A program made the position numbers and the translations under genes. 64,000 bases of DNA, from IMG/VR virus record IMGVR_UViG_3300010397_000044, positions 1-64,000 of that record; one strand, given 5' to 3'. Positions within the stretch are counted from its first letter, which is position 1, and each line of letters begins with the position of its first letter. Under the pieces are notes generated by a model that saw nothing but the letters and a program-made list of their open reading frames with translations, made no database searches and had not been told where the DNA came from. This DNA is from a virus. This document shows, in pieces, positions 14,765 through 61,969 of this stretch.

Positions 14765-14955
14765 AACAAGATTATCAGGGATTCTATAAAGGAACTATCT
14801 TTGTCGGCCCAATATTCGCCACCGATACTCAACGACCAGCTTTTTACAGAGAGCAAGACGTAGAAGACCGAAAGGATAAAATCTACTATTACGCCTCTCA
14901 TGTAACAGATAACCCACTTATTTTTGAAGAAATTAAAACAGAAGAGAAACAATGA
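14746..14955 (+). CDS. hypothetical protein
   Basis: MRRFTLKQDYQG...FEEI. Confidence 0.5.
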   Translation: MRRFTLKQDYQGFYKGTIFVGPIFATDTQRPAFYREQDVEDRKDKIYYYASHVTDNPLIFEEIKTEEKQ

Positions 14956-37943: not shown

Positions 37944-40900
37944 AGGAAGATGTTATAGAAGCTCCGCCTATAGGGGACGAACAAGCCCCACCAACCCCGC
38001 CACAAGATGCGGATGAAAAGTTACGTGCATTACATTCGGCTGTTTCGCATGATTATGATATTGGCGACTTTGATACTTTCAAGAAAAAACTACAAGACGC
38101 TTCCAAAAGAAAGGCTTTCTATGACGGTATTGGTAATGAATATCAATTAGGTAGCTATGATGATTTTGAGAAGAAAATAGGATTCGTAACACCGCCAGAA
38201 CATCACGTTCAACATAGTTCATTGCAGGATATACGGCATTTGAACGATATAGCAACCGCTCCAATAGATCTTCCGCAAGGAACGGCTGCGCCTATAAATA
38301 CAGACGAACTATATGCTACCAAAAAGAAAGAAAAAGATGCATTCGCCAGTCAATTAAATGCACAATCCAAGATGCTTGGCGATCAATGGGGCATTGATCC
38401 TAAAATAGCCAAACAAGCTGTAATTGACTTCCCAGATGAGAACGATGAGGAAAAGGTAAAGGGGTTTGCTCAATTGTATAAAGACAATCCGATTTATTAT
38501 AGGAGATTAAAGGATGAAAATGATATCAGAACTGCTATAGCAAAAAGCCCAACCGGAGGGATCAACGACGCTAATATCTACAATCATTTGCAAGATGCGC
38601 AGAACTACGATCAATTGCAGCACAATATCGGCATTCAGCAAGAACTAATGACTAAAAGTGGTCTAGGTCAGGAGTATTGGGAAAAGATGAAGCAAGCCAA
38701 GGCTCCATTGATAAATACGCTTGATCCGGGTCTCCTTCATCAATATTGGAATAGCCAAGATCATAAATTAGGGTTAACCGACTTTCAGTATGCCGGGCTT
38801 GAGACACTAAAAATGTTTCAGCCGGAGTTATATAAGCAATACAAGTCCATCATAATGGAGAATAAGGGATTGGATGAAGGCGGTAATCCAAGGCCGGAAG
38901 GACAAGGTAAAAAAGGGTATGAATATGATAGAGGGGTAGAAAATGTACTATACAGCATTGAAAGACAAGGGAGACAGAATACGGCTCAATATATATCCCA
39001 GCATCAAGTTGAGTTAGGGAAGCAATTGGAGAAGGTCAAAAATGATTATCAAACTAGGATAAATAATAGCAAAGACCCAGAAGAGCAAAAGGCATTAGTG
39101 GAAGAGTTTAAAGCCAATCCCCTTATAGCAGAAGCCGGTAAATTAGAAGAGGGCCAACAGGCAATAGACTACGCCCAAAGTGAAGATCAAAGGCGGTTCC
39201 CTTTGAATTATTCCGACATGTCCACTAAGTTGGTAAAGGATGCCATGGATGGCACAACCGGGTTGATAGGGAACACCGGAAAGTTCTTTGAGGGTGTCCT
39301 GACGGGAGCTGGCCAAGCTTCGGATAATACCATTCGGTTTATAAAAAACACGTTTGTTAATATATTGGGTTCGGAAAGTTCAAAAGCCGCCCAACATGCG
39401 AAGGATATAGGTCACCAATCTTTAACAGAATTAGCCAATTACGAGCCATCTTCTTATACAGGAACTCAAAGCCCCTTGCTGATACCCGATGACCTCAAGA
39501 AGTCGGTACAGACCATAATGGATGATAGCTCTTTGTCAAATGCAGAGAAGGAGCAAAATGCCATATCATTAGTCCGGGATAACTTTGATAACATAAAAAT
39601 CAATCCTAAGGCTGGTCAGCAAAACTTGACCGGGAAAGCGGCTTTATTCACTGCTGCGAACACTTTGGGTCAGATCATAGGCATAGCCGATCAGTCGTTA
39701 TTGATGGGGGGATTATTGGGTAATGTAACGAAGGTTCAACAATTGACGAATGCCTTAGTTCCTATGTATGCTTCAACGCAAAATCAACTATACGAACAGG
39801 CATTGGCTAGGGGGGATGAGAAACCGTTGCTAAAATCCAGTATTGACGCGGCAATTATCTCCCTAGCCTCACTTATCAATCCGGACTATAAAGTAATAAA
39901 AGGAATGGTAGGGGCGGAAACCGGTTTGGGTAAAGTTATCGCTGGTGTAGATGAGGCTACTTGGAATAAAGTGTTGTCCGAAAATTCCCCCATCGTAAGC
40001 AAGTTGATGGCCGGGACTAAGGCAACCGCGCGTCAGTTAGGACTTGCCAATCTACAATATGGTCTTATTGTGCCAACCGCCCAATACGTTGTCCATAAGA
40101 ACGTCTTAAACGAAAACGCTAATTTGGGCGACATGATATTGGACGGCATGAAACAAGCTACGATATCAATGGCTATCCCAGCGTTAGCGCATGGTATTTG
40201 GGGGGGCATCAGAGCTAATCAAGTTAATCCACAGCAGAAATATGCCTTAGTCGAAGCCGGATTGCATCCACAAGAAAATATTGACCTTATTAATGGCCAG
40301 ATTGAGCGTGGTCAAATCATGCCATCCGAAGCCGATAAAATAAAGGAAACCATAAAGCAGACAGGAGAAATCCTTAAAAATGGCGAGTTTATAAAGACGG
40401 ACGGCACTCCTATGAATGAAAATGAGGTAGCGGATGTAGTTTATAACCAGCTTCGTAAAAGAGCCTTAGATGGTAAGCTACGCAATGCGGCAGACCCCAA
40501 TAAGCCCCTAATTGAAGCCAAAATACATGAGATAAATCAGGATATATCTGACCTGCATACCTCCGACGAACAAAAGCATAAGACGGAACTAAATAAGTTG
40601 CTGACCGACAATTTGGATAGGATCAAAAAGAACATGCCTGCATTCGAAGGACCTATTAGAGATGCTATTGCAGAGAATCGGCCAGAAGAAGTCATGCAGA
40701 TGATAGCCGATCAAGCAACCGAAACGACCAAAGTTGATGGAAAGGAAGTTAGTTCAAGATCGGCCACAGAAGAAATATTCGGGAAAGAATTGGTTGCGAA
40801 GGCTATTGAAATATCAAAGAAAAAGCCTGAAAAACCAGCGAATATAGAGCCGGAGGCGAAACCGGCTTCTATATCCGTTATCCGTCCCGAACAAATCAAT

Positions 40901-43618: not shown

Positions 43619-45702
43619 TAAAGATATATTATATATTAGACGGAGGCGGTGGGGGCGGAGAGGAGCCGGAACAGCCCAAGAACTACAAACCATTGACAAC
43701 TGCCCAACGTGGCGAATGGAATACATTTCTGGACTATTTGGGAAGTCAGGGTAATATAAATCTGGCTGATCCACAAGTAGGGACCAATTTCTTAAATCAA
43801 TACAAAAAAAACAATCCGAATTTCTCTATAACGCCTGACTTGTTGCCATCTATCCAATACGAACAATACCAATTCAGAAAGGGCAAAAAATTCGGAAATC
43901 TTGACGAAAATCAATTAAAATACATTCGTCAAGGTCTTCCACAGACATATTTGGCGAAGCCAGTAAGCCCCATAAATGGCATTATAAACCCTGAAACCGC
44001 CAAGCTTTATTATCCGCAAGTAGGTCAATATGGGACCGACTTAGAAGCTTATTATGATGCAAAAGTGGGTAAAAGTCCCGCAGTAGCACCCGTGACAACG
44101 AATGCTACTTTAGTAACCCCCATGGTCTATCCAGACAAGGACACACTAAGAAAGAAATATGGCGGTAATCCTTATCTGGCAGATCAAAATAGATACAATT
44201 GGGGCAATAAATTACAGAATGAATTTCCACTTACGGGGGGTAAAGTTAAAGATGCCGTGGTAGATGCGGCAAAATTTAATGGAGTAGACCCTGCATTGCT
44301 ATATAGTTCAGCGATGGAAGAGGGAATGTCAGGGTCGGTAGATGCAAAATATTCAGGGAACGCCAGCGAGGCATATGTAGATTGGGCCAAAAAAAATAAT
44401 GACATAGCGGAAGAGTACCCGGTAGATAGCTTTTATAATTATGGGTTAGACCAATTTTCCGGAATGGCCTCGGGTCTTGAAAAGAAGGGATATTTACCCA
44501 AAGGCTTTAAGGAAAGATTCACGACATTCCCAGCTGAAAATGAAAAAGGAGAGCAGATAAAAGCCTCTGCCTTTAAGAAAGACTCCGATGCCCTCATAGC
44601 TAAAAGCGCAATGATGAGGCTCGCTAAAGACCAGCTTAATGACCACTTATCCACAAATAACGTAAAACTAACCCCTAAACAACAAGAGTTTTTTCTTTTA
44701 GCTAATTATAATGGCGGGGAAGGACTTATGAAAAAAATGCTTCAGTCTTACAAAGAGAAAGGGTATCTGAAGGATGATAAGTTTCTAGACCCTAAATTTA
44801 AACCGGCATCCTATGGAGAAGTTTATAAACACGTTTTGGCCCGGTTGGAAAGTGCCAAACAACTTAAAGAGGAAAAATATTTTGAAGATGATAAAAAGCA
44901 AAGTGATTTCAAAAGTTACAAAATTGCAGACAACAATAACTCTAGTGATATAAGGAATGATGAGACTGTAAATAATTCAGAAAACGAAAGTCAGTCCGAC
45001 ATTGGCCCTATTTCATTTCTTAATTCATATTATGAAAGCCCTGAATTTAAAAGAAAATCGGGGGGAAATTATGAAGCTAACAAGTCTATATATAAAAAAG
45101 GGGCTCAAATGTATGTTCCAAAAATAGTTGAAAGTGATAAAGAAGGCAGTCATTCCGTAGGCCCTGACGAACTTTTTTATTCTAAAAGATTTGAAGAAAA
45201 AGGGAGTCCCACGGTAGTTTTAGATAAAAAACAAGCCAAGGATTTAAAATATGACCTTTTTAATGATGTGCTTCCGCATGAGTATGCACACACTACAAGA
45301 CGACTTAGTCCCAATGACGAACAAAAATTTATTTTAAAAAATAAAAACAATCTGGTAAAGACCCTTTTTGAATCTTATAAACAGGATTCCAGCGGGATGC
45401 AATCAGGTAAAACCTTTTCAGATTGGGCGCATACAATTGCGGACCATACACAACTGCCGGGGGAGAATTATTCTGATCTCAATTCATTAAGGTGGAATTT
45501 GTACAAAGCTGGTATTTATGACGCTAGAAAAGGGCAAATGAATGTCGAGCACCTTAAAAAGGCTATGTCCGACCCTAAATTAAAAGATAACGAATTGTTT
45601 AATAGGCTTTTAAAGTCTTTTTCTCCGGAAGATATAGTGGAGCTAAATAACACTGTAGCATCGACTAAACCGGAAAAAGACAAGGAAGGTTCGAACTCTT
45701 AA
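43615..45702 (+). CDS. virion protein with lytic-transglycosylase-like and HExxH domains
   Basis: AAKFNGVDPALLYSSAMEEG...LANYNGG, then PHEYAHT. Confidence 0.6.
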   Translation: MIKIYYILDGGGGGGEEPEQPKNYKPLTTAQRGEWNTFLDYLGSQGNINLADPQVGTNFLNQYKKNNPNFSITPDLLPSIQYEQYQFRKGKKFGNLDENQLKYIRQGLPQTYLAKPVSPINGIINPETAKLYYPQVGQYGTDLEAYYDAKVGKSPAVAPVTTNATLVTPMVYPDKDTLRKKYGGNPYLADQNRYNWGNKLQNEFPLTGGKVKDAVVDAAKFNGVDPALLYSSAMEEGMSGSVDAKYSGNASEAYVDWAKKNNDIAEEYPVDSFYNYGLDQFSGMASGLEKKGYLPKGFKERFTTFPAENEKGEQIKASAFKKDSDALIAKSAMMRLAKDQLNDHLSTNNVKLTPKQQEFFLLANYNGGEGLMKKMLQSYKEKGYLKDDKFLDPKFKPASYGEVYKHVLARLESAKQLKEEKYFEDDKKQSDFKSYKIADNNNSSDIRNDETVNNSENESQSDIGPISFLNSYYESPEFKRKSGGNYEANKSIYKKGAQMYVPKIVESDKEGSHSVGPDELFYSKRFEEKGSPTVVLDKKQAKDLKYDLFNDVLPHEYAHTTRRLSPNDEQKFILKNKNNLVKTLFESYKQDSSGMQSGKTFSDWAHTIADHTQLPGENYSDLNSLRWNLYKAGIYDARKGQMNVEHLKKAMSDPKLKDNELFNRLLKSFSPEDIVELNNTVASTKPEKDKEGSNS

Positions 45703-45749: not shown

Positions 45750-46256
45750 ATGGCGTTAAGCCCCTCATTTACTCTTTCCGGGACATCTGATCCAAGTTCC
45801 CTGACCCTGACCGATACTAGTACCGGAACGGATGGCGCGGTCGTCGGCAGAAAGATAAATCTTTACGACGTTTCAAATAATTTATTTGGATCATCTCCCT
45901 ACGATTTCCCCAACTTCCCTGGCACGACCTCAATTACCATAAATCCTTTTTTAAAGGATAAATCCATTAACGTTGTTGTTACATGGGTTGACAATGTGGG
46001 AACCGTATTATATACCGCGTCTAAAATCTATGCTTCAACTGGATATGGGGAACAATTTTATTCCGGGCTCACAAGAAATTTAACCTCTCAGCCGGGTATA
46101 GCCAATGATCAACAATTCAGGGAGAACTTTAGTTGGTTGAGAACGCTGTTAGATTCAACCGTACTAGCCATCAATAACATGCAGGATATTATAGCAGCCC
46201 AAAACTGTATAGATCAATATAACGGAATGATTCAAAATCAAAACGATTTCTTCTAA
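45750..46256 (+). CDS. virion structural protein (fibre-docking candidate)
   Basis: LTLTDTSTG beta-rich N-terminus; first gene of the fibre module. Confidence 0.55.
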   Translation: MALSPSFTLSGTSDPSSLTLTDTSTGTDGAVVGRKINLYDVSNNLFGSSPYDFPNFPGTTSITINPFLKDKSINVVVTWVDNVGTVLYTASKIYASTGYGEQFYSGLTRNLTSQPGIANDQQFRENFSWLRTLLDSTVLAINNMQDIIAAQNCIDQYNGMIQNQNDFF

Positions 46257-47125
46257 TGGCATCTGAAAGAACACCAGCACAAATTTCATTAATTGCAGCC
46301 ATCTGTCAAACGTTGGCCGTTAATGATCGTGCATTTCAGAATGCCGTAAAAGGGTTTGCTTTGGATCAACGGTTAGCTCGTTACATCTACATGAACAGAA
46401 GGTCTTTGGATTATGTTCTTTCTGTAAATCCGTCCGACACAACCTTGCAGGCAATAGCTAATTACGTTTATGCCCTATGTTCACCATATATAGCGAGAGC
46501 GCAGCAAATTATAAATAACCTGCAAGTGGGATTGCCCGTATTAACGGGACCGACAGACCAAAGTACAACGGTTGGCAATAGCGCAACGTTTTCAGTTAGT
46601 GTGTCCGGAACAGGTCCGTTTATGTACCAATGGTATGTAGGCGGAGTGGTTATTGCCGGAGCAACAAGTGCATCATATATAAAAAGTAATGCACAGTTGT
46701 CGGATGACGGTAAATTATATTCGGTGCAAGTTACTAATGTCGCTGGTTCAGTGTTTAGTGGAACGGCAAAATTAAATGTTACATCTGCATATGTGGCCTT
46801 CTATTACTATGGTGATGTAGATTATAGTAGTGATTTAATGTCTGGCAATGATAGCGTACCCTATTTGGGAACATTCCCGGTCACGGCTGGGCAACCATTG
46901 AGCTTTACATGGCCTTCAGGAGCGGCGAACAATAAATACATAGTTGTAAAATATCCGGGGGCAGAATCCGTTAAAACGCAATACTCTAATCTGCCTTTGA
47001 ATAACGGGCTTATACCCAGTATAGCCTTTGAAAATGTCTCAACAATAGGATCATTTAAATACATATTCAGTCGAGGAGGAAATCCTTTCTCGATGAATAC
47101 GGCAAATGCATTAATTTTTAGTTGA
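46256..47125 (+). CDS. Ig-like domain structural protein
   Basis: PTDQSTTVGNSATFSVSVSG...YQWY...YSVQVTNVAG. Confidence 0.8.
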   Translation: MASERTPAQISLIAAICQTLAVNDRAFQNAVKGFALDQRLARYIYMNRRSLDYVLSVNPSDTTLQAIANYVYALCSPYIARAQQIINNLQVGLPVLTGPTDQSTTVGNSATFSVSVSGTGPFMYQWYVGGVVIAGATSASYIKSNAQLSDDGKLYSVQVTNVAGSVFSGTAKLNVTSAYVAFYYYGDVDYSSDLMSGNDSVPYLGTFPVTAGQPLSFTWPSGAANNKYIVVKYPGAESVKTQYSNLPLNNGLIPSIAFENVSTIGSFKYIFSRGGNPFSMNTANALIFS

Positions 47126-47142: not shown

Positions 47143-50100
47143 ATGGCCCAAGCAGAAGGAAGGAGGTTGAAGAATAAATATCTTCCCCTCTTTCTGACAA
47201 TAATTCTAGTATTTATATATACGGTTTCGTTTTCACAAACGTTTAACCCATCTCTTCACGTCGTCGTTAATTCAGCAATAGGGGAAGCTCAAGCAGCGCC
47301 ACTGGATGCTCGTAGTATGTTTTATGATACGTCAAATTTTAGGTACCGCGCCTACCAAAATACTTCAGAAGTAAAATCATACTTAAATCTACCCAAATAC
47401 AGATTCGGCAACTTTCTTATCGTTGTAGACTCAGGGGGAATATTGCAGCCAAATGGAACATATGTCGGTGGAGTTAATACATTTTGGATGTTTAGGGATT
47501 CCACCGCAGATGCTAATTTAGTTAAACTCAACCTGACGGGAAGTTCGGGACCTTGTGTGGGCTGTCTTTTAGCTGCTAATAACCTAAATGATGTTGCTAA
47601 TAAACCGACAGCATTATCTAATTTAGGAATTGGGAGCATGGGTTTATTAAGTTCAACCGCAAGTGGAGATTTGAATGGCATTTGGCCCAATATTACAGTT
47701 CAGCGTTTTAATAATCAATTGCCGGCCTATTATCTAAATTATAATAACCTAACCAATCAACCCGTAATCCCTGCTCAAATAAACATTACAGACGCTGGTC
47801 TTTTCACGCATACCGGCACCTACCCTAACCTTACCTTTAATTCCAGGACTCCCGGATTCGAGGAGACTATAATTCAAAATAATGCATTATCGGGAGATAG
47901 AACTATAAACGGGGGAGCTTTTAATCTTTTGATTAGTGGCACGGGGGCGTTGGGAATTCCTGTTGGCACAACTGCGCAACGTCCATCATCCCCAGTTACT
48001 GGAATGTTGCGTTTTAATACAGACTCTCTGAAAAAGGAAACTTACAATGGGAGCACATGGGTAAGCGATGGAACGGGCGGCGGAGGCGGGGGTAGCGGGA
48101 TTACCGCCTTAACAGGAGATGGAACAGCTTCAGGAACGGGATCGGTTCCCTTTACGTTGGCAACTGTTAATAGTAACGTATTCGGGTCTAATACATTTTT
48201 GAAATTTGGAGTAAATGGGAAGGGCCTCGTTACTTCGGCGACTGCTGTAGTGAGCGGAGACATTACCAGTGCATTAGGGTATACCCCGTATAATTCAACA
48301 AACCCAGCTGGTTACATAACCGGTAATCAGTCTATTTCTTTTACCCCCAATGCAGGCGGAGACGTTACGGGATCGTCTTCGGGAACAACTTCTTTAACCC
48401 CTACACTTACGATAGGTAATAACAAGGTGACTTATGCTAAGATTCAAGCAGCTTCCGGAGCAGCCTTATTAGGAGCAACAGGAGCAGGTAATTATCAAGA
48501 AATAACATTAGGAACGGGCCTCTCTTTTGCGGGATCGGTTCTTAATGCAGCACCCGGCGGGGCAACAAACTCAAATATTGGTGCTGGTTTCCGTTGGGCC
48601 GTTCCCTCAACAAACAATATCAAGACTGCTTTCGGAAGCGCATTTATAGCATACGACTCAACCACTAACACTAATGCTTTAACAGCAAAGATAGCCAATG
48701 GAACGCCTAATTATCTTTTAGGGTGGGATGGGTCTGGCAATCCAGCAGCATTAAAACCAGATACACTTTTTTATGCCCAGTTAGGTCAACCCGGAGATTC
48801 TGTTGGATGGATAAACTCTCTTGGAGTGATTAATTTTAGATTAATGCGAGATTCGCTATCATTTCATCACATAACAAATCCAGATGGGAGCTGGACTTTT
48901 TATTCTGCTGCAACTGGTGATTCTGGTATTGTAGCCGGATATGGTATTTCTGTAAGTAGAATAGCCGCTAATAATAGAATTGTATTTGCAGATACTTCTA
49001 TTCCAAATGGAATAGCGCCGCGTCACGTTGTGATAGATACCGCATTTAATAGATTTGTGCGTACAGATTCTGTCAATATAAGATTCAGAAACCCTGACTT
49101 TAATACACAGCAAATATATTTAGATGCTGGAGTAGTAGCTGGGGTGTTTTACTATGACAACACGGATATAACCACAGCGGATGACAGCGTAATGACCTTC
49201 GTTACAAATCAAGGCAAAAGATGGAAGAGGTTAATCACTACGCCGTATATAAATGTAAAGTGGTTTGGTGCGCTGGGTAACGGGGCGCATAACGATATAC
49301 CCAATATTACCAAAGCTATAGCATGGTTAAATAACAATACTAATAGCCCTACAAGAGTATTGTATTTCCCGTCTGGCAATTATGTTATTAATAGTCCAAT
49401 CATTGTGGCTAGATTTAATGGCACAACATATTCTCAGGTTAATATGACATTGATGGGTCAGGCAAACGCTAAAAATTCCCCATCTCAATATACATCTGTA
49501 ATTACTCCTACATTCAATAATACATTTGCAATAGGTATTCAATTAGGAAAGGGGTGTAATATAGAAAACTTTAAAATATCCGGGCAATTCTCTTTCCCGA
49601 ATACTCTAAGTAATATTAGTGTTGATACATTAACTGAAGCTCAATGGACAGACGGATCGGCACGACAAAATACAGTTACTCCATATGCCGGTATCGCTAT
49701 TGATCCATTTTCCGACTCTTTATCTTATACCTCAAATTCGGATTTATATCCGGGACTTCATTCTTATTGCCCTGCTGGATTACCAAGGGCTGGTAGTACA
49801 GATATAAACATCAAAAACTGCAATATAACTCAATTCATAGTTGGGGTCATATTGTCTCCATCCAATCAGCAAAATGCTGACGAAATAAACATGGATCAAG
49901 TTAATATAGGGGGCAATAAAGTAGGATTCGCATTTTGTCAATCTCAATCTAAAGATTGTAATGTAACAAGGTTTATGGCTTGGGCACCAGTCTATAGCAT
50001 ATTTGATAATGCTACCTACGGGATTAGACATGGTGATGGTGCTGGTTCGCCAAATATAAATGGCGGCAACATAGCTTCTCAGGTATATCAGCTGGGTTAT

Positions 50101-53100
50101 ATGAATGGGCAATCGTTTAGGGGAGGAATATATAATGTATATGCGGAGGGGTTATTCAAATTGGGGTCATGGGTTGGTCAAGCCGGCTATATATTCGAAA
50201 ATTGTGATTTCAACTTTGCGACTAATGCATCAAATATCCCCTATCCTGACTTCTTTATATTTGCTGATAATGTAGAAATGGTAAATTGTCAAAATAGATT
50301 CTATGGCAATGTGCCTACGCGTATGATATTTACTGGAAGCCAAGTTAAATTTAGAGGTGGCACCCTAAATGCAGCGCCTTTCGTGGCGTCAATGAGCTGT
50401 TGCAATACTTCTCAAACTCCCACATTTGATAACGTTAGACTTTTTTATTCTCCGGGAGGGGTAATAGGTAGAAATAGGCCCACAAATCCATTTAATACGA
50501 ATGGCGTAATGAATGGATTAATGTCTGCCGTGGCGGGTGGAACCGATCCAATATATCCTCAGAGTAATCAATCTGATATATATACTTTCAAGTATAGTGG
50601 ATCATGGGATAGAACGGTCCCATTGGGAACCAAAGCTATTACAACTAATAGAACTACATGGAGTGGTTATTTTGTTTCAACTGCTGGCGATAGTACAAAA
50701 ATAAGAGTGGGTGATTTTCTGGTAACCAATAATGCAAAGCCGGTCGGTCAATCAAGCACCGTTGCGACTACATCAATGCCTATAGGCTTCATATCAAAAA
50801 TATCTAATGATACGGTTTACTTTAATAATCTGGCAACAGAAATAAAAGATAGTGCATATACTATTTGGGCTGGATACGCAGTCAATAATAAAGATGCATT
50901 TACAGGAAGCATGGTAAGCGGCCAAAAGTATATTACCAAAGTAATTACAGCCAATGGTAATTCTTTGGCAACTTTCTTTTCAATTGGAGAACGATTTGAT
51001 TTGCCACAATTTGCATTAGGTACTTATGTAACAGGGGTCGGTAACGATACTGTCTATCTTTCAAATGTCGCCAATGCTACAAATCCGGAATATACATGGA
51101 TGAATGGATTCCCATCTATTGAAATATGGAGTCCGTCTACCCCGGAGACTTTTACGCAGTCAAGTCAAAAATTGCCACTATATGGAGGAGCAATATATCA
51201 CAAATCAATCGCAACTTGTTGTTCTTTTTTATATGCCGCCCATTATGGGGACGCGTATAAATCATATAAAATATTAAATTCAAACTTTTTTGGAGATACC
51301 ATCATTCACAAAGTGAAATATTCTCCAATAATAGAGGATGTTGGCGGTATGACAATTGCTAAAGGAACTACAGCTCAATTGTTCAACCCTAATTATACTA
51401 CGCCATTAATAAGGATTAATAGTGATAGTACTTTGAACGGGTTTTCACATGCAACTATTACGGACGGAAGTATAACCAGACAGCTTGCCTATCTGAATGA
51501 TTTAACAATTGCTACTGATACGACTATACTATCCACAAGAAATAATGTAAATAGGGTTAGAGACTCCCTATTAGGTGTTTTGGTTAAAAATTTAGGGGGA
51601 GCCGTTGGGATATCCAGTGGTCCTTACTTATCGAGGCCCTCGGCTTCTAATTCGCAAAGATTCTATTGGTCTACTGATTCTGTATTTTACTCCTACGATA
51701 ACGGGACTTGGAATGATATCCGAACCGCCGCAGGAGGCAATAATTCTTTTTTAAATATTCAGGCAAATAGTTTAGGTACTACCCAAGACCCTTCAAAAGG
51801 TATTTTAATAAACAACTTAACTGCTGCTGCTGCTGGCGCACAGCAAATATCTCCGGGTCTTGTATTAGAGGGGCAAGGATGGAAAACGAATGCCACAGCT
51901 GCATCCCAATCAGTTAAATTCAGAATGGATGTTACACCTATACAAGGAGCAGCTGCGCCTACGGGACAATTTAAAATAGGCTCCTCTATAAATGGTGGCG
52001 CATATGCCGATAAAATAACCATTAATTCGGATGCGATTGGCGGCATATTTACATCCGCCGGATTACAAATGAATGGAGCGGGCCTAAATTTTTCAGGCGG
52101 AGGTACTGTTGCCCAGCAAATGACAGTTGGGGGTGCATGGACATTCAACTATTCCAGCGGACTGGCTTCAAATGCGAACGCATGGACAATGACTCATGCA
52201 ACCGGCGTGTATACCTCCGGCACTTCCAGCAATCTGAGAGTCTTAGGTACATATAACCCGCCGTCTGGTACTGGTGAATACAATGCCGCCTTTATTACAC
52301 CTACTATCAATCAGACGGGGGGGGCAAATGGAATTACCAGAGGATTATATATCTCCCCTACTCTCACATCCGCTGCTGACTTTAGAGCGTTAGAAATTAC
52401 GACTGGCCAATCTATTCTTGGGGGCTCACTTACTGTCAAGTCAATCTCTACAGGCTCCGGAACGGACTCTGTTTTAGTTGAAAATGGAGGCCTTATAAAA
52501 ATGGTAGCTCAATCATCCTTGGGAGGGTCTAATATCTACAATGCAGACGGAGCCTTGACGGCCAATAGGACACTTTCCGGTGCAACATTTTCTCTTGCAT
52601 TAGGCACAAGTGGCAGTAAGATTGGTGGTTTATCCATTAATTCGAATGGAACGACCATAAGCAGTGGTATATACAATAGCGCAGGGGGATCACAATTATT
52701 ACTGGCCGCCAGCACTATTAATAATGCGATAACTACAGGCGGGGGAACAGTTAGCGACTTCTCTGCATATTTTTTCAGGACGCCAACAGTCACTAGTACA
52801 AATGCTGTAAACTATTCTCACGCAGCAACGGTAAGGATTGAAAATTCCCCCACAATGGGAACCAACTCCACGGGGACTAATCAATTATATGCATTAGATG
52901 TTGCTGCCGGTATATCCCACTTTGGGGTAGGTAATTCCAACATATCAGCTTGGTTCGATGGAGTAATAGGGGTTAGTGCGCCACCAAATAGCACAATACT
53001 ACTTGGGATAGGGGCATCTTCTTCTAGTGTAACTTCTATGTACCTTACACCGGGAGCAGATGTAACAGGAAGCCTTTTGACACAAAGCGGAGACTTGTGG

Positions 53101-53448
53101 AATAACGGGACTAATTTATATTTTGTCGATGGGTCTTCTTCAGGTGTGAAAAGAGATTTATTGAATGAAGGAACGTCTATAACAGAGAGCTCTGCGGGTA
53201 CCTTAACCTTAACTCAACAATACACTGATTTCATATTTACTGGCACCACTACTACATGGACTTTGGGGGCATTAGCGTCTAATTTCAATAGAACTATTCA
53301 TATTAAAAATGCAGGCAGCGGAAACATCACTTTGAACAGAGCAGGGAGTGACCAAATTTACGACGTAAGTGCTGTCACAAGTATAACAATAACGCCGGGA
53401 ACAGCAAGAACCTTAAAGGGTGGTGCAGCTTTTTGGTATGTAGAGTAA
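47143..53448 (+). CDS. tail fibre/tailspike with pectate-lyase-like beta-helix and N-terminal signal peptide (start possibly TTG 47167)
   Basis: IPVGTTAQRP, ITSALGYTP fibre motifs; INVKWFGALGNG...LYFPSGNY beta-helix cap; KNKYLPLFLTIILVFIYTVSFS-Q leader. Confidence 0.85.
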   Translation: MAQAEGRRLKNKYLPLFLTIILVFIYTVSFSQTFNPSLHVVVNSAIGEAQAAPLDARSMFYDTSNFRYRAYQNTSEVKSYLNLPKYRFGNFLIVVDSGGILQPNGTYVGGVNTFWMFRDSTADANLVKLNLTGSSGPCVGCLLAANNLNDVANKPTALSNLGIGSMGLLSSTASGDLNGIWPNITVQRFNNQLPAYYLNYNNLTNQPVIPAQINITDAGLFTHTGTYPNLTFNSRTPGFEETIIQNNALSGDRTINGGAFNLLISGTGALGIPVGTTAQRPSSPVTGMLRFNTDSLKKETYNGSTWVSDGTGGGGGGSGITALTGDGTASGTGSVPFTLATVNSNVFGSNTFLKFGVNGKGLVTSATAVVSGDITSALGYTPYNSTNPAGYITGNQSISFTPNAGGDVTGSSSGTTSLTPTLTIGNNKVTYAKIQAASGAALLGATGAGNYQEITLGTGLSFAGSVLNAAPGGATNSNIGAGFRWAVPSTNNIKTAFGSAFIAYDSTTNTNALTAKIANGTPNYLLGWDGSGNPAALKPDTLFYAQLGQPGDSVGWINSLGVINFRLMRDSLSFHHITNPDGSWTFYSAATGDSGIVAGYGISVSRIAANNRIVFADTSIPNGIAPRHVVIDTAFNRFVRTDSVNIRFRNPDFNTQQIYLDAGVVAGVFYYDNTDITTADDSVMTFVTNQGKRWKRLITTPYINVKWFGALGNGAHNDIPNITKAIAWLNNNTNSPTRVLYFPSGNYVINSPIIVARFNGTTYSQVNMTLMGQANAKNSPSQYTSVITPTFNNTFAIGIQLGKGCNIENFKISGQFSFPNTLSNISVDTLTEAQWTDGSARQNTVTPYAGIAIDPFSDSLSYTSNSDLYPGLHSYCPAGLPRAGSTDINIKNCNITQFIVGVILSPSNQQNADEINMDQVNIGGNKVGFAFCQSQSKDCNVTRFMAWAPVYSIFDNATYGIRHGDGAGSPNINGGNIASQVYQLGYMNGQSFRGGIYNVYAEGLFKLGSWVGQAGYIFENCDFNFATNASNIPYPDFFIFADNVEMVNCQNRFYGNVPTRMIFTGSQVKFRGGTLNAAPFVASMSCCNTSQTPTFDNVRLFYSPGGVIGRNRPTNPFNTNGVMNGLMSAVAGGTDPIYPQSNQSDIYTFKYSGSWDRTVPLGTKAITTNRTTWSGYFVSTAGDSTKIRVGDFLVTNNAKPVGQSSTVATTSMPIGFISKISNDTVYFNNLATEIKDSAYTIWAGYAVNNKDAFTGSMVSGQKYITKVITANGNSLATFFSIGERFDLPQFALGTYVTGVGNDTVYLSNVANATNPEYTWMNGFPSIEIWSPSTPETFTQSSQKLPLYGGAIYHKSIATCCSFLYAAHYGDAYKSYKILNSNFFGDTIIHKVKYSPIIEDVGGMTIAKGTTAQLFNPNYTTPLIRINSDSTLNGFSHATITDGSITRQLAYLNDLTIATDTTILSTRNNVNRVRDSLLGVLVKNLGGAVGISSGPYLSRPSASNSQRFYWSTDSVFYSYDNGTWNDIRTAAGGNNSFLNIQANSLGTTQDPSKGILINNLTAAAAGAQQISPGLVLEGQGWKTNATAASQSVKFRMDVTPIQGAAAPTGQFKIGSSINGGAYADKITINSDAIGGIFTSAGLQMNGAGLNFSGGGTVAQQMTVGGAWTFNYSSGLASNANAWTMTHATGVYTSGTSSNLRVLGTYNPPSGTGEYNAAFITPTINQTGGANGITRGLYISPTLTSAADFRALEITTGQSILGGSLTVKSISTGSGTDSVLVENGGLIKMVAQSSLGGSNIYNADGALTANRTLSGATFSLALGTSGSKIGGLSINSNGTTISSGIYNSAGGSQLLLAASTINNAITTGGGTVSDFSAYFFRTPTVTSTNAVNYSHAATVRIENSPTMGTNSTGTNQLYALDVAAGISHFGVGNSNISAWFDGVIGVSAPPNSTILLGIGASSSSVTSMYLTPGADVTGSLLTQSGDLWNNGTNLYFVDGSSSGVKRDLLNEGTSITESSAGTLTLTQQYTDFIFTGTTTTWTLGALASNFNRTIHIKNAGSGNITLNRAGSDQIYDVSAVTSITITPGTARTLKGGAAFWYVE

Positions 53449-53461
53449 GAAATTTATAAAC

Positions 53462-53893
53462 ATGAAATATATATTTGGAGCCATATTAGCATTGGGGGTT
53501 GTTTTTGCAAGCTGGTTTGCATATGATCCTTCTGTTAGGATGACAATGAATAATGCCCCGGGGCGTACATTGTCAACCACGGGAAGCAATAACACATTCA
53601 CTATAAGTACCACAAAGTGTACATCGGTTGCTTATACTGTTAATTTCAGTGCTGCGCTTACTTTGGGAACTAGTAATGGGCGTGTTCAATTGGATGTGAG
53701 TTTAGATGGGGGATCAAATTGGATAACTATTTCAAGCGTGTCTCAGGTATTCGGTGTTTCAGTAACCATTACAACCAATCAAGATTTAGTCCTTGCCGGC
53801 ATGGTGCCAGCTAACGCTTTAGTTCGAATATACAGAATAAACAATGCAGGAGTTACCGTTACGTTAGGTTCACAGCAGGAATGCACAATGTAA
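53462..53893 (+). CDS. small beta-sandwich protein with signal peptide
   Basis: MKYIFGAILALGVVFA leader; SLDGGSNW Asp-box. Confidence 0.65.
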   Translation: MKYIFGAILALGVVFASWFAYDPSVRMTMNNAPGRTLSTTGSNNTFTISTTKCTSVAYTVNFSAALTLGTSNGRVQLDVSLDGGSNWITISSVSQVFGVSVTITTNQDLVLAGMVPANALVRIYRINNAGVTVTLGSQQECTM

Positions 53894-53906
53894 AAAATAG
53901 ATTCAC

Positions 53907-54884
53907 ATGATAAAATACATTTTAGGTCTTTGTTTGCTCGTAAAAGGATTTATAGGGGAGAGTCAAACTTTTGTCAAAAAGGTGGGTGATATAGTGGGAA
54001 ATCAAACCGTCATAAGCGTTCCTGTTGCGACCGGTAGCCCAACAAAGCAAGCACTTATTTACTACCCGGATGATTATTTTAAAGACACTACAAAAACCTT
54101 CCCCGTATATTTTTTCTTACACGGCGCTGGGGAGGCAGGTACAGATATAACAAAAGTTACGAACACCTCGTTGCCTAGTCTTATTAAGGCAGGATTGAAG
54201 CCGTATAATATCGTAGGAAAAGATACAATAAAATGGATAGTTATTAGCCCGCAGTGTAGTGAACCCGGGGGGAATTGTAGTTATTCGTGGCCTCAACTTA
54301 GGTACACCATCCCATATTGCTTGCAGAAATTCAGGATAAATAAGAACTGTGTTTGGGGCGGTGGCTTGTCTATGGGGGGCTCAGCTACTTTCTCTTTAGG
54401 AATGGCAGATACAGGATGGACTATGACTTACATGACTGGGTTAATGCCATTTTCTAATGCCGGATGGGATGATAATTTAGCCAAGTATGGCCCCAATCTT
54501 GCCTATTGTTTGAAGAAAGGATTGGCTGTGCTATATGTTATCGGAGATCAGGATCCCGGCTGGAACCCTAATGCATTTGGGGCGTATGATAAATTGATGA
54601 GCGCAAATGCCCTCCCCGGTCTTTATAGAGATAGCGTAATAAAAGGTGGTACACATAGCGCTAATGTTTGGAATACACCGTTCCCTTTTACGTCTCGCCT
54701 TTGGTCTAAAACCCAAAATTCATGGGATTTAATGTGGTCTTTCCGAAAAAACGCCAATGTGGTTGCGCCTCCGCCGGTCGTGATACCGCCCCCAACTAAC
54801 CCACCTGCATCATTGCCTTATCCGGTTCGTATTGTAGTGAAGTACAGTGATAGTTCTTGTCAAATAATTTACATGAAACCATGA
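53907..54884 (+). CDS. secreted alpha/beta hydrolase (esterase-like)
   Basis: Signal peptide ending GES-Q; FLHGAGE, GLSMGG nucleophile elbow, GGTH; Pro-rich linker. Confidence 0.85.
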   Translation: MIKYILGLCLLVKGFIGESQTFVKKVGDIVGNQTVISVPVATGSPTKQALIYYPDDYFKDTTKTFPVYFFLHGAGEAGTDITKVTNTSLPSLIKAGLKPYNIVGKDTIKWIVISPQCSEPGGNCSYSWPQLRYTIPYCLQKFRINKNCVWGGGLSMGGSATFSLGMADTGWTMTYMTGLMPFSNAGWDDNLAKYGPNLAYCLKKGLAVLYVIGDQDPGWNPNAFGAYDKLMSANALPGLYRDSVIKGGTHSANVWNTPFPFTSRLWSKTQNSWDLMWSFRKNANVVAPPPVVIPPPTNPPASLPYPVRIVVKYSDSSCQIIYMKP

Positions 54885-56518
54885 GGGTACTAATATTCCT
54901 GCTAATATGCATTGGGATTCTAAGCTTCAAGATAGCTAAGGATAGGTATGTAGAATATAGAGATTTTAAGCGCATGTACGCCGGTATATACGTTACCAAA
55001 GTTGCAGCGGCAGAATATTTGGTTGCTTATCTTTATAGCGATAGTACGGTAAGAGCCTATATAAATGACGTTGGGGCATCAGTGCATTTCATTCCTTATG
55101 TATTTGGAGGTAGAAAGGCTATAGATGTTGCCCCAGCTTTCAACCATGTCATGATTTTGGATGATCAGCATTACGTTTGGAGAAATACCCCGTCCGGGAC
55201 GCCAGCAGGACCAGCATGTACAAGATATGATACAGATACAGCAGGAAATCAATTCAATTATTCTTATAAACTATATGCGTATTTCGATTGCTACCTAACA
55301 ACAACGCAAAATAACGATTCATTAATTTATTGGGCCACTACCGATGGTCTTAGATGGATAGACGGTACCGGCACAAGAACCTGCAAGCCCTTCCTTATTT
55401 GGCAACCCCCGTCCGGAAGAACGATTAAGAAAGTGGCAATGGGGTTGACCGTGTCTGTATTGCTGGATAATGGGGATGTATACGAAAGGGGAACTGGCGG
55501 TAGCTCTTTTGCTAAAGTAACGCTTCCGGCTGGATCATATTGTACAGACGTGTATTGTTCATACAAAGATTTTAGGACATACATTCTACATAATTACGCT
55601 GGTGGGGACCCTACCTTGGGGGTTCTCGCTTGGGCTGGTTCTCGATCAGGATTCTTTGGAGATAACCAATCAAGATCAAGTCCTTTCATTCTGTCATGGC
55701 CTTTCCCTAATCACCTAAAGATGTTAGGTGGTGATGATAACACGGCAATTATGATAGATTCAGCCGGAAGGATGTGGGGAAATGGGGACAATCCACAAGG
55801 AGAAGTAGGTAACGGATCAGAGATAGTAAATAGGTATGATTATCATAACTTTTGCTGTTATACGCCCTATGCATGGTCAACTGATGAAGGACAGAACCCT
55901 GTTGCTCCGGCTGTTGAAATAGGAATTGGACAGACGTGGAAATATATAGCTGATGAAAAAGGATTTGCCTTCCATCACTTCGCCATTACAACTAACGATT
56001 CATTGTATAGATGGGGGCGTAGTAAAAGCTTCGACTTATGGCCATACGCCTCCAATAATGAAGCCACATATCCAAATAATTGGGACATTCTATCTCCCAC
56101 TCAATACACTCTTTTAGCTACTCCAACTGGGTCGTATATCACATTCATTTTACCAAGAGTTCATTGTGTGGCAGGACAGCCAACCAATTCAACCGTATCG
56201 ACTAGTACAAGCAGCATAAGCCTTGGGGGGCTGGATACGGCTAATTTTTCTGGCCCCGTAGGTTATTCAATCTCATCCTATCAATGGAGTCTGAAAACCA
56301 AACCGGGCAGTGCGCCAAATCCTACCTATACATCTGCCACATCCCAGACTACTACGATAAACGGATTACAGAATGGTCAATACCAATTTTATAAGAAAAT
56401 GACAGATAATAACACCGGTATTTGGGCCGACAGCGTTACCGTAAATGTGAATATCGTATCTGGTTGCGGGGGATGTACGGTTTTAAAACAAGTGAGAACC
56501 TTCAAAAGAGTGCCCTAG
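54881..56518 (+). CDS. secreted RCC1/BLIP-II-like repeat protein with C-terminal PKD/REJ domain
   Basis: MRVLIFLLICIG leader; MWGNGDNPQGEVGNG; SYQWS...TINGLQNGQYQF...TDN. Confidence 0.75.
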   Translation: MRVLIFLLICIGILSFKIAKDRYVEYRDFKRMYAGIYVTKVAAAEYLVAYLYSDSTVRAYINDVGASVHFIPYVFGGRKAIDVAPAFNHVMILDDQHYVWRNTPSGTPAGPACTRYDTDTAGNQFNYSYKLYAYFDCYLTTTQNNDSLIYWATTDGLRWIDGTGTRTCKPFLIWQPPSGRTIKKVAMGLTVSVLLDNGDVYERGTGGSSFAKVTLPAGSYCTDVYCSYKDFRTYILHNYAGGDPTLGVLAWAGSRSGFFGDNQSRSSPFILSWPFPNHLKMLGGDDNTAIMIDSAGRMWGNGDNPQGEVGNGSEIVNRYDYHNFCCYTPYAWSTDEGQNPVAPAVEIGIGQTWKYIADEKGFAFHHFAITTNDSLYRWGRSKSFDLWPYASNNEATYPNNWDILSPTQYTLLATPTGSYITFILPRVHCVAGQPTNSTVSTSTSSISLGGLDTANFSGPVGYSISSYQWSLKTKPGSAPNPTYTSATSQTTTINGLQNGQYQFYKKMTDNNTGIWADSVTVNVNIVSGCGGCTVLKQVRTFKRVP

Positions 56519-56750: not shown

Positions 56751-57053
56751 ATGGGTAATTTTATAGTTACTGAAATCCTATTTGGCATTGTATGGATCAT
56801 TGGAGCCTTGGTATTAAGGGAGTTTGTTATCTCCAAGGATGGAATGCTTAGAAAGATCATGATTGCCTATTTCGCCGTGGAAGTATTCACCTATTTGGGA
56901 GCGGCTATTTACTTTCTGGCCATAGAAGAAAAGTGGTCGGATATGTCGATTAACACATTCAGAATAGTTGTAATTACTCCAAAAGTTTTTGTTAAATTGT
57001 GGTTACTTTGGTATCTTAAATCCGGTAGAAAAAAGCTAAAATCCTCAATATGA
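56751..57053 (+). CDS. 3-TM membrane protein of the lysis region
   Basis: Hydrophobic segments and a basic tail. Confidence 0.55.
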   Translation: MGNFIVTEILFGIVWIIGALVLREFVISKDGMLRKIMIAYFAVEVFTYLGAAIYFLAIEEKWSDMSINTFRIVVITPKVFVKLWLLWYLKSGRKKLKSSI

Positions 57054-57400
57054 GCCCCTTCTTGGAAGAATTATTGGGCAAAAACAACCAGCCGGGTGTT
57101 ATGCTGGCTGCATTCGTTTTCGCCCTCATTGGTCATGCTATCGTATTATTGGGTGGAACCATGCTTAGGGTACCTAAGTCGCCCGATAGCCCCGAAAAGT
57201 TTTCCCTCTCTTATCTTCTCTACGACAACGCTAAACGTATTCTTTATGTCCTGCTGCTTATAGTGGTAGGCATTCGCTTTTTACCAGATTTCACAGGGAT
57301 GCAGGTAACCGGATGGGGAGGTTTTTTAGTTGGGTCTGGTTTGGACATCATCGCACTTGTAATTAAGCAACGGACCAAACTGTTAGACCCCAAATCTTGA
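57050..57400 (+). CDS. holin candidate (3 TM)
   Basis: Hydrophobic segments; located in the lysis cassette. Confidence 0.55.
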   Translation: MSPFLEELLGKNNQPGVMLAAFVFALIGHAIVLLGGTMLRVPKSPDSPEKFSLSYLLYDNAKRILYVLLLIVVGIRFLPDFTGMQVTGWGGFLVGSGLDIIALVIKQRTKLLDPKS

Positions 57401-58068
57401 AAACTTTTGCACGATATGGTATTGTAACGGTTGTGGCTCTTCTATGCTTTTGGTTTTGGCTTCAGAAGTGCAATAACGTTCCCGGGCCAGATCATACCCA
57501 AGACAAGGTATTTGTAGATAGTGTCACCAATATGGTAAAGGGGAAGTTGGCCGAATTTCAGCACGTCTATGATTCGGTGAAGGCCGCCAATGTGGTATTG
57601 CAGAAAGATAAGGATAGCCTTGTAGGAGTAGTAGCCGCATATAAAATAGACCTCAAATCCAAAGGCAACGATATTCAGGATTTAATAAACTCATTAGACG
57701 AATCAGAGGACGCCAAGGACACGCTCCGACAGCTTACCTTATGTGATAGCCTCAAAGGCCAATTCGCTTCAGCCAAGGGGCTAGTAGGGGCCTATATCCA
57801 CGCAAACGATAGCCTTTCAGCCCTCAATAACCAGATCATAACTTCAAAGGATGCCATCATAGGCCGGTTAAACGGTATGTTCACGGATGCCAATAATTCC
57901 CTATTTCAGGTAGGGTTAAAATATGACCAATTATACGCAGATTATAAACGATTAAACGTCAAGCCAAAAAGATTTGGTATTGGGCCTTCAATTGGGTATT
58001 ATGCTACCCCGAACGGATTAAAACCGGGCCTTGGCATATCTTTTACGTTTAGTATAATTAAATTCTGA
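57397..58068 (+). CDS. spanin-like membrane-anchored coiled-coil protein
   Basis: N-terminal TM, long coiled coil, C-terminal beta strands ending in Phe (RFGIGPSIGY...FSIIKF). Confidence 0.65.
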   Translation: MKTFARYGIVTVVALLCFWFWLQKCNNVPGPDHTQDKVFVDSVTNMVKGKLAEFQHVYDSVKAANVVLQKDKDSLVGVVAAYKIDLKSKGNDIQDLINSLDESEDAKDTLRQLTLCDSLKGQFASAKGLVGAYIHANDSLSALNNQIITSKDAIIGRLNGMFTDANNSLFQVGLKYDQLYADYKRLNVKPKRFGIGPSIGYYATPNGLKPGLGISFTFSIIKF

Positions 58069-59169: not shown

Positions 59170-59634
59170 ATGGACGAAAGATCATTAAAGGAACTTAATA
59201 CACTCCATCCTAAATTTAGGCAATCAGCTATAGATGCATGGACAGAGGCCCAAGCCGCAATGCCAGACAATGTGAAGATTGTAGTAACTCAAGGATTGAG
59301 AACATTTGAGGAAAGCGATAAGTTATACGCTCAAGGAAGAACAGCGCCGGGGCCAAAAGTTACTAATTCCGCTGCTGGGCAATCTTACCATAATTATGGG
59401 CTGGCCTTCGATTTTTCAATGATAACCAATGGAAAAACAGATTGGGTGCTTGGGCCTAATTGGATGAAAGTAGTTGAAATCATGAAAAAGCATGGAATGG
59501 CGTGGGGTGGTGATTTCAAATCAATAGTTGATAATCCACACTTTGAAAATCGGTTTGGCTTTAATTGGCGACAATTGCTGGCTAAACACAAAGCGGGAGA
59601 CTTTATCACCGGCACACAATACGTTAATATTTAA
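59170..59634 (+). CDS. endolysin, peptidase M15 (L-Ala-D-Glu type)
   Basis: GLRT...LYAQGRT...SYHNYGLAFD...WGGDF...DNPHFE. Confidence 0.93.
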   Translation: MDERSLKELNTLHPKFRQSAIDAWTEAQAAMPDNVKIVVTQGLRTFEESDKLYAQGRTAPGPKVTNSAAGQSYHNYGLAFDFSMITNGKTDWVLGPNWMKVVEIMKKHGMAWGGDFKSIVDNPHFENRFGFNWRQLLAKHKAGDFITGTQYVNI

Positions 59635-60326: not shown

Positions 60327-60659
60327 ATGAAAAGAAGTATAGCATTAGCAATCTTTGTTTTTGGTGTATTTTCGACTTATTCCCAAGAAATAAGAAAGAA
60401 GTATATACTTCCGGGCCATTATAAAAGTCAAGGGGAGTATTACAGAACAATAGTATATTGTGACAGAAGGGATACGGTGCAGGTTAAAATATTCTATACA
60501 AATGGCGATGTTGAAGAGGGGTACAAAGAAGTGTGTAAAATGAAGGGGCGTATCTATGATGGGAAGAATATCCTCGACGCATGGAAAAGAGGATGGATAT
60601 TCTATGATAAGTATGGAAGAAAAGTCACACAGAAAGTAAAATGTTATCAGCTTATTTAA
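60327..60659 (+). CDS. secreted hypothetical protein
   Basis: Signal peptide ending TYS-Q. Confidence 0.6.
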   Translation: MKRSIALAIFVFGVFSTYSQEIRKKYILPGHYKSQGEYYRTIVYCDRRDTVQVKIFYTNGDVEEGYKEVCKMKGRIYDGKNILDAWKRGWIFYDKYGRKVTQKVKCYQLI

Positions 60660-61615: not shown

Positions 61616-61969
61616 ATGAAGAAAATATTTTTTACTATCTCAGTAGCGCTTATTTCGATGGCATCCAAGGCTCAGGTATATGTCCAGTTCGTGAATACCA
61701 CTTCTAAAAGAATAGTAGTGGATTTACACCTGAAGGGGGTAAAAGACACTATTCAGCCTGCTGAATCTGGTAAAAGGTTAGGCCCGTTTCGATTAATAAA
61801 GGAGAAAGAAGAGCTTTTAATTAACGACGCCTTCCCCTACAATCCGGATGTATCAAAGGATGGAGCCTATTATACCTCGGGAACATTTGTCATGCTTATC
61901 AAATGGTACCCCAAACATGGATTTATAGCCGATCTTATTAGAGTGTCGAACCAATCTCGCATGGAATAA
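61616..61969 (+). CDS. secreted hypothetical protein
   Basis: Signal peptide MKKIFFTISVALISMASKA-Q. Confidence 0.7.
   Translation: MKKIFFTISVALISMASKAQVYVQFVNTTSKRIVVDLHLKGVKDTIQPAESGKRLGPFRLIKEKEELLINDAFPYNPDVSKDGAYYTSGTFVMLIKWYPKHGFIADLIRVSNQSRME

Follow-up and report, generated by a model that had tools for sequence, protein, structure and literature searches.

The stretch of DNA analysed here (the window) comprises the first 64,000 nucleotides of the IMG/VR virus record IMGVR_UViG_3300010397_000044, which is 78,734 bp long, in one piece and without terminal repeat; our subject is a row of four consecutive genes on its plus strand, at positions 47143-56518, that probably form the distal host-recognition module of the phage. 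The products are a giant fibre of 2101 amino acids (aa; open reading frame 47143-53448) and proteins of 143 aa (53462..53893), 325 aa (53907..54884) and 545 aa (54881..56518). Comparison of sequences makes it highly probable that the host exports these proteins and that sites for the general O-glycosylation of that host have been selected in them; the host-recognition gear of the phage very probably matures outside the cytoplasm, as judged from the same data. Strong support for export and for sequon selection comes from the combination of: i) a conserved pattern of residues at -3, -1 and +1 around the predicted cleavage site; ii) leaderless orthologues that begin at that cut; and iii) an excess of glycosylation sequons that is specific for Asp as the first residue and that is shared with a spanin-like protein of the same phage. 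The phage is uncultured and short-tailed and is related to the Pachyviridae and the crAss-like phages; its host group is soil Bacteroidota.

N-terminal leaders and their conservation

Leaders were called on the basis of Kyte-Doolittle hydrophobicity (12-residue mean) and a reading of the residues at -3 and -1. The initial annotation had assigned Sec-type leaders to all four genes, and the hydropathy values bear this out: all four proteins have an N-terminal hydrophobic core with a mean of 2.4-3.5, versus 2.0 or less in the 16 leaderless virion proteins encoded from the portal through the 289-aa tail protein. A signal peptidase I site with small residues at -3 and -1 is predicted in three of the four. 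The fibre leader (residues 1-31; 47143..47235, plus strand) has a basic n-region, an h-region of 16 residues and the sequence SFS|Q at residues 29-32; the leader of the 143-aa protein ends in VFA|S, and that of the 325-aa protein in GES|Q at residues 17-20. The two leaders that had been said to end in S-Q are thus those of the fibre and the 325-aa protein, which have Gln at +1 (the Q-rule), a feature that is absent from the 143-aa and 545-aa proteins. The 545-aa protein opens with a hydrophobic leader or anchor and has an alternative TTG start at 54857; its leader may be a signal anchor, to judge from its residues, and the homologue in the related locus L005 has a clean ANA|Q leader.

A true start downstream of the leader had been named as an outcome that would speak against export. 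This was checked on the fibre gene, in which no in-frame ATG, GTG or TTG is found between codons 9 and 40. A dual start, in which an internal start would yield a leaderless isoform, was ruled out on this ground and because the relatives have no conserved Met, Val or Leu near the cut. A releasable anchor of the signal-arrest-release type was ruled out as well, the h-regions being rich in Leu, Ile and Phe and not in Gly and Ala.

A search of 5.8 billion proteins recovered 55 relatives of the fibre, many of them on contigs of 67-81 kb. A leader is present in 33 of these relatives, with Gln at +1 in 32 of the 33, Ala, Ser or Gly at -1 in 30 of 32 leader-bearing relatives, and Gly, Ala, Val, Leu, Ser, Thr or Ile at -3; in the alignments the residue after the leader is the invariant Q32. 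Immediately after this Gln lies a conserved domain of about 100 residues (the N-domain; 47236..47544, plus strand; QT[YF]NPS...YLNL.KYR.G), which is the N-terminal part of the mature fibre and a candidate virion-docking domain. A profile search with the N-domain gave 609 clusters at E ≤ 1e-3 among 1.84 billion representatives, and for the 150 top-scoring clusters the domain begins at residue 18-34, i.e. behind a leader, in about 94% of cases. A hydrophobic h-region of the leader type was found in at least 120 of 142 family representatives.

Eight members of the N-domain family start with M-[A/S/P], a Met plus one or two residues, right at the predicted mature end, and the orthologue at L010:9995 is likewise leaderless and starts at that same point. 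Such a natural deletion of the leader provides an independent marker of the cleavage site, and the existence of leaderless orthologues indicates that the domain can work without export.

O-glycosylation sequons in the exported proteins

General O-glycosylation in the Bacteroidota is confined to non-cytoplasmic proteins (those with a signal peptide or in the membrane) and takes place at the motif D-S/T-A/L/V/I/M/T, which is enriched over chance among non-cytoplasmic proteins, is nearly fully occupied and is also glycosylated when engineered; the substrates reviewed are all host proteins, and phages are unmentioned there (PMC12871550). The motif is the same in the proteins described here, with the difference that these are phage-encoded, fibre-like candidates.

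We counted this sequon, D-[ST]-[AILVMT], and derived its expectation from 2000 composition-preserving shuffles. In the fibre 21 of the 25 D-[ST] dipeptides are sequons, versus 7.0 ± 2.5 in the shuffles, none of which (0 of 2000) reached 21; the sites are scattered from residue 119 to residue 1775, in unrelated contexts and not within a repeat. The 545-aa protein has sequons at seven of its eight D-[ST] dipeptides (2.0 expected, p about 0.001) and the 325-aa protein at three of five (0.8 expected, p about 0.035); the 143-aa protein has no D-[ST] at all. For the leaderless muzzle protein of 1339 aa the count is two of ten, and no leaderless virion protein exceeds its expectation, the 1893-aa protein having none where 5.1 are expected. 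The manual counts of the initial annotation (fibre, 545-aa, 325-aa and muzzle proteins) were all reproduced exactly, and the comparison that it had proposed, with shuffled controls and with leaderless virion proteins, showed an excess in the three exported proteins and none in the leaderless ones.

The excess depends on the Asp. For this comparison the exported set consisted of the four module proteins and a 223-aa spanin-like protein (57397..58068, plus strand; DUF6808) that has an N-terminal membrane anchor and a coiled coil and in which six of six D-[ST] dipeptides are sequons. Spanin-type proteins are certainly extracytoplasmic, so that this protein serves as an internal positive control for sequon loading. 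In the exported set 37 of 44 D-[ST] dipeptides (84%) are followed by Ala, Ile, Leu, Val, Met or Thr; with nine other residues in front of the Ser or Thr this share is 17-46%, and for the D-[ST] dipeptides of the leaderless virion proteins it comes to 27% (11 of 41; Fisher p = 9e-8).

The same distribution was found in homologues, for which a sequon test had also been proposed. Leader-bearing relatives of the fibre contain 538 sequons where 202 are expected (2.66x), with 74% of their D-[ST] dipeptides in sequons, whereas the leaderless relatives that have only the distal domains in common contain 142 where 169 are expected (0.84x; Mann-Whitney p = 1e-8 for the difference). Within the N-domain family the leader-bearing members have 1245 sequons versus 519 expected (2.4x) and the true leaderless members 24 versus 29 (about 0.8x). 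In the related loci the second leader-bearing proteins after the fibre, which belong to unrelated families, have 45 versus 13.8 expected (3.3x) and the membrane-anchored spanin-like proteins 23 versus 2.6 (8.9x); the leaderless virion proteins have 39 versus 55.9 (0.70x).

The Cys motifs listed in the initial annotation are present as well: CVGC at residues 138-141, CC twice, and CGGC at a C-terminus. Cys makes up 1.06% of the residues of the four module proteins, versus 0.41% in the leaderless virion proteins (2.6x).

The four proteins and their genomic setting

Behind the N-domain the fibre has a mosaic body (47545..53448, plus strand) that holds 20 of the 21 sequons, as seen from the coverage by homologues per block of 100 residues: the N-domain is common to 142 collected proteins, the central module (residues 629-1458) to two relatives only and the C-terminal module (residues about 1700-2101) to about 20. 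Domains found in the relatives include GDSL esterase, BNR, DUF5907, pectate lyase and S74 chaperone, a common repertoire of tailspikes and fibres, and tblastn matches residues 642-765 of the fibre with proteins from Klebsiella and Xanthomonas phages that are annotated as tail fibres. The nearest ESM Atlas clusters to the central module are viral pectate-lyase/beta-helix proteins (score 0.93, a lead only); an AlphaFold model of this module from a three-row alignment had a predicted local distance difference test score (pLDDT) of 31 and was not used, and phmmer of the fibre against the PDB gave no match. The assignment as a tail-fibre-type protein is supported by synteny, by the conserved N-domain with a mosaic body and by the enzyme domains in the relatives.

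The 143-aa protein corresponds to phrog_31472, and its nearest Atlas clusters are small viral proteins; it is possibly a periplasmic accessory or chaperone of the fibre. The 325-aa protein matched, in a phmmer search of the PDB, the feruloyl esterase domain of XynZ (1jjf, 3e-5, residues 40-256) together with CE1 and ferulic acid esterases, and the esterase motifs are intact (FFLHGAG with the HG of the oxyanion, GLSMG as G-x-S-x-G, GDQD and GGTHS). By these motifs it is a predicted secreted carbohydrate esterase of the CE1 type. It ends in a Pro-rich linker and a short C-terminal strand. A motif ..Y-S-D-[SG]-[ST] is common to the strands that close esterase-type proteins (window 54770-54881, L006:19560-19694 and L008:14880-14984), and this strand may act as a tag for docking. 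The 545-aa protein carries a C-terminal PKD domain (PF22352, K319L-like; 31.1 bits, above the cut-off of 27), ends in the CGGC mentioned above and contains an RCC1-like propeller region that scores 32.6 bits, far below the cut-off of 150.

Upstream in the window are genes for GroEL, the portal, the large terminase, a capsid-type protein, the 1339-aa muzzle-like protein and the giant protein of 1893 aa. The large terminase shows about 25% identity to its counterparts in podophages of Flavobacterium and Cellulophaga, gp114, gp115 and gp122 of phage phi18:3 are the matches of the muzzle-like and giant proteins, and DNA nearly identical to that of the phage occurs in soil and rhizosphere metagenomes of several studies. 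The gene order is constant in eight related loci: a giant leaderless protein, sometimes a protein of 420-700 aa, a 168-aa protein, a 289-aa tail protein with an immunoglobulin-like (Ig) domain, the leader-bearing fibre, one or two more leader-bearing proteins and holin-like genes. The leaderless 168-aa protein (45750..46256, plus strand), a candidate tail adaptor, lies two genes upstream of the fibre in the relatives (the same position in seven related loci), has one sequon among two D-[ST] dipeptides and gave no match in Pfam or the PDB. The leaderless 289-aa protein (46256..47125, plus strand) is directly upstream of the fibre (synteny in six loci) and matches a PHROG tail protein at 4e-12, and its Ig domain matches the phage tail proteins 9c2d_S and 9ncf_S. 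No further fibre-like gene besides that at 47143 was found in the 78.7-kb genome.

Downstream of the module two small multi-pass membrane proteins (56751..57400, plus strand), holin-like by their hydrophobicity, mark the start of the lysis cassette; in L005 and L009, too, they are conserved downstream of the module. The spanin-like gene follows, and an endolysin of the peptidase M15 type (59170..59634, plus strand; Pfam Peptidase_M15_4 at 6.5e-15) lies further on. Sequon-rich spanin-like proteins were also seen in relatives (L005:19841-20260, L009:14773-15366, L011:17023-17640 and L012:18495-19133), and in the spanin-like gp27 of crAss001 (L055:25093-25695) four of four D-[ST] dipeptides are sequons. 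The sequon content suggests that lysis proteins of Bacteroidota phages are heavily O-glycosylated.

Several further features were observed in the window and in the related loci. A leaderless 695-aa protein (window 43615-45702), with a stretch of Gly close to its N-terminus and a C-terminus that matches a tail PHROG, was found in some relatives only (L008 and L009) and has no match in Pfam or the PDB. The N-terminus of the 1893-aa giant protein (window 37937-38180) is 60% identical to the 103-aa gp122 of phi18:3 (L013:25310-25621), which precedes the 1935-aa gp123 as a separate protein; the same protein is thus fused in the window phage and split in phi18:3. A cassette just before the GroEL gene (window 14952-18231) is formed by an S-adenosylmethionine-dependent methyltransferase, a family 2 glycosyltransferase and two unassigned proteins of 270 aa; it could tailor the host glycan of the exported proteins or modify lipopolysaccharide or capsule. 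Small open reading frames with Bacteroidota-type leaders are found at 1806-2147, 13213-13584, 60327-60659 and 61616-61969 (ending in ..QGQ, the lipobox LVSC, ..YSQ and ..KAQ, respectively), and in the lipoprotein at 13213 three of five D-[ST] dipeptides are sequons; these are candidate secreted or superinfection-exclusion proteins.

The leaderless N-domain orthologue at L010:9995-12019 (M-STYNGAKH...) belongs to a phage of 95.7 kb and has no sequon at its two D-[ST] dipeptides, and the leader-bearing protein downstream of it lacks both the Gln and sequons, hinting at a host outside the Bacteroidota. Yet in an upstream leaderless protein of 2840 aa of the same phage (L010:74-8596) 14 of 20 D-[ST] dipeptides are sequon-like. 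A scan of viral contigs with another leaderless member, P0184, gave matches only to a common downstream fibre motif and none to the N-domain.

Probable export, possible virion attachment and alternative explanations

The explanation that we find best, and to which we lean slightly, is export followed by periplasmic maturation and docking at lysis. The four proteins would be made as Sec pre-proteins, late and together with the tail genes, and would cross the inner membrane unfolded; at least three would be cleaved by signal peptidase I, and in two of these the cut would expose an N-terminal Gln for cyclisation by the host. Folding, disulfide formation and addition of the general O-glycan of the host at D-S/T-hydrophobic sites, which would be under positive selection, would take place in the periplasm, and the esterase and the propeller/PKD protein may join the fibre there. 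The adjacent holin-like, spanin-like and endolysin genes would then break the envelope and merge the compartments, after which the N-domain would dock onto the tails of particles that had been assembled in the cytoplasm. Late docking is biochemically feasible, since finished particles take up P22 tailspikes and T4 fibres in vitro.

That the products of the module end up on the virion has, in our estimate, an even chance of being correct, and this part leans on fibre architecture, synteny and an analogy with phi18:3 (Pachyviridae, KC821620). The core virion genes of phi18:3 are homologous to those of the window phage, and just before its lysis genes (L014:32891-38583) it encodes three consecutive proteins, gp085-087, with ..YSQ, ..SAQ and ..NAQ leaders, which match tail, tail-fibre and pectate-lyase PHROGs by their N-terminal modules and are annotated in the record as 'structural protein, experimental MS/MS' (tandem mass spectrometry). 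A role in the virion is further favoured by the leaderless orthologues, which are found in the fibre slot, behind the same pair of tail genes. In design, the nearest parallel in the literature is the mosaic adhesive trimer (MAT) fibre family of Bdellovibrio bacteriovorus, in which a signal peptide is followed by a beta-rich, conserved N-domain (about 130 residues) and by a long mosaic body that resembles a phage fibre and has variable tips (PMC10769870). This layout indicates that phage-type fibres can be exported and can fold outside the cytoplasm, but the MAT fibres belong to the cells of a predator and are not virion parts, do not come from the Bacteroidota, involve no O-glycosylation sequon and resemble the fibre described here in layout. 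Virion glycans themselves have reportedly been described in mycobacteriophages by Freeman et al. in 2023, on capsid and tail-tube proteins and made by cytoplasmic, phage-encoded glycosyltransferases, whereas glycosylation here would be periplasmic, would depend on the general system of the host and would affect exported fibres.

Several observations weigh against export with subsequent docking on the virion. The 545-aa protein has a strong h-region and neither a good -3/-1 site nor a Gln. The phi18:3 proteins gp085-087 have no homology to the four module proteins and show no sequon excess (one of five, one of seven and one of three), so that export and glycosylation are separable and the analogy is loose. 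The fibres of two other cultured relatives, the crassvirus crAss001 and the Cellulophaga phage phi38:1, are leaderless. In PhicrAss001 the proteins gp22-gp26 resemble the module in that they are encoded between virion and lysis genes, include tailspike-type enzymes and have a fibre whose N-terminus docks in the tail hub (PMC10172136), but leaders are lacking in all five, as is a strong sequon excess, and residues 1-26 of the leaderless gp22 were seen inside the hub, which indicates that the crAss001 fibres are not exported. The N-domain was not found in 50,697 phage records. An AlphaFold model of it was obtained with a pLDDT of 75-94 over residues 1-100, for which Foldseek gave no significant match in the PDB or BFVD; among 16 weak fold matches (Z 2.0-2.7) nine are phage tailspike or fibre entries, many of the matches being to N-terminal parts of tailspikes, which is a hint only, and a complex prediction with the 289-aa and 168-aa proteins and the N-domain scored 0.24 (mark 0.32) and gave no verdict in either direction. 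Docking after lysis, finally, faces dilution, and no mechanism that would retain the fibres near the particles is visible.

Two alternatives deny export altogether. One attributes the signals to chance or artefact, through wrong start codons or through the composition of Ser/Thr-rich beta proteins, and we give it hardly any credence. The fibre consists for 21% of Ser and Thr, which does raise the D-[ST] background, but the idea is refuted by the shuffles, which keep composition and never reach the count, and by the lack of an excess with other first residues; leaderless fibre relatives of like composition show no excess either, and at the protein level the leader is a conserved feature. According to the other, the hydrophobic N-terminus is no working signal peptide but acts as an uncleaved membrane anchor or forms a structural helix, with the fibre remaining on the cytoplasmic side for conventional assembly. 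The poor cleavage site of the 545-aa protein and the calling of leaders from hydropathy and residue patterns would fit this, but the -3/-1/+1 pattern is kept in 32 relatives, leaderless orthologues start exactly at the predicted cut, and an Asp-specific sequon excess linked to the leader is unexplained for a cytoplasmic protein because the glycosylation occurs only outside the cytoplasm. We consider this explanation improbable.

Two others accept export and place the proteins elsewhere. The more serious one, which we still judge unlikely, holds that they are exported and glycosylated but never reach the virion and act on the envelope of the infected cell itself, for instance by stripping or deacetylating its surface polysaccharide from within, and thereby stop the trapping of progeny on debris, exclude superinfecting phages or aid release. 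The enzymes fit such a role (the CE1 esterase here, the GDSL esterase and BNR sialidase-like domains in the fibre relatives), the module abuts the lysis cassette, and the topological problem of periplasmic fibres that have to join cytoplasmic particles does not arise. On the other hand, a conserved N-domain with a mosaic body is the classic design of a virion fibre, the position of the leaderless orthologues behind the two tail genes is that of a fibre, the genome would be left without any fibre-like receptor-binding protein, and the leader-bearing proteins of phi18:3 are on record as detected structural proteins. The last alternative has the proteins pass through the outer membrane and coat the cell, infected or lysogenic, in the role of adhesins or moron-type surface proteins. 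They are large and secreted and have adhesin-like domains (PKD, with Ig neighbours), and prophage morons often lie near tail-fibre and lysis genes. Yet the relatives sit on phage-sized contigs of 67-81 kb, and among the genomes of 185,579 species (one per species) neither an integrase-linked nor a prophage copy of the N-domain turned up, the only match being a spurious one of 50 residues in a cyanobacterial metagenome-assembled genome. A C-terminal domain of the type IX secretion system was not detected in the four proteins (Pfam at E ≤ 0.01, NCBIfam at E ≤ 0.1; a divergent domain would escape), nor was a lipobox Cys at the ends of their leaders. Display is disfavoured because of these three absences, and we regard it as very improbable. 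Of what the initial annotation had proposed, Sec export, cleavage by signal peptidase I and selection of sequons are thus upheld by the comparative evidence; its suggestion of display on the infected cell, by contrast, is not.

Export, periplasmic maturation and docking at lysis might apply to the lineage as a whole. The extension to at least 609 N-domain clusters, with Sec export, N-terminal pyroglutamate, disulfides, a host O-glycan and the joining of particles at lysis, is put forward tentatively, as we rate it at slightly below an even chance. To our knowledge, the assembly of tailed-phage particles is regarded as an entirely cytoplasmic process, and our literature search gave no report of tailed phages whose fibres are exported by Sec or O-glycosylated by the host. 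The cultured relative in which the question is testable is phi18:3 on Cellulophaga baltica, and fibres produced in E. coli may misfold or lack activity if export and glycosylation do not take place. The leader together with the sequon excess provides a simple sequence signature by which uncultured phages can be assigned to Bacteroidota hosts. If the proposed maturation is true, an extracytoplasmic step would be added to the morphogenesis of tailed phages, and their virions would wear glycans of the host type, with a bearing on protease resistance, self-mimicry and binding to mucus or the soil matrix. The general O-glycosylation system of the host would then become a dependency of the phage, with new routes to resistance and limits to host range that are tied to the host glycan.

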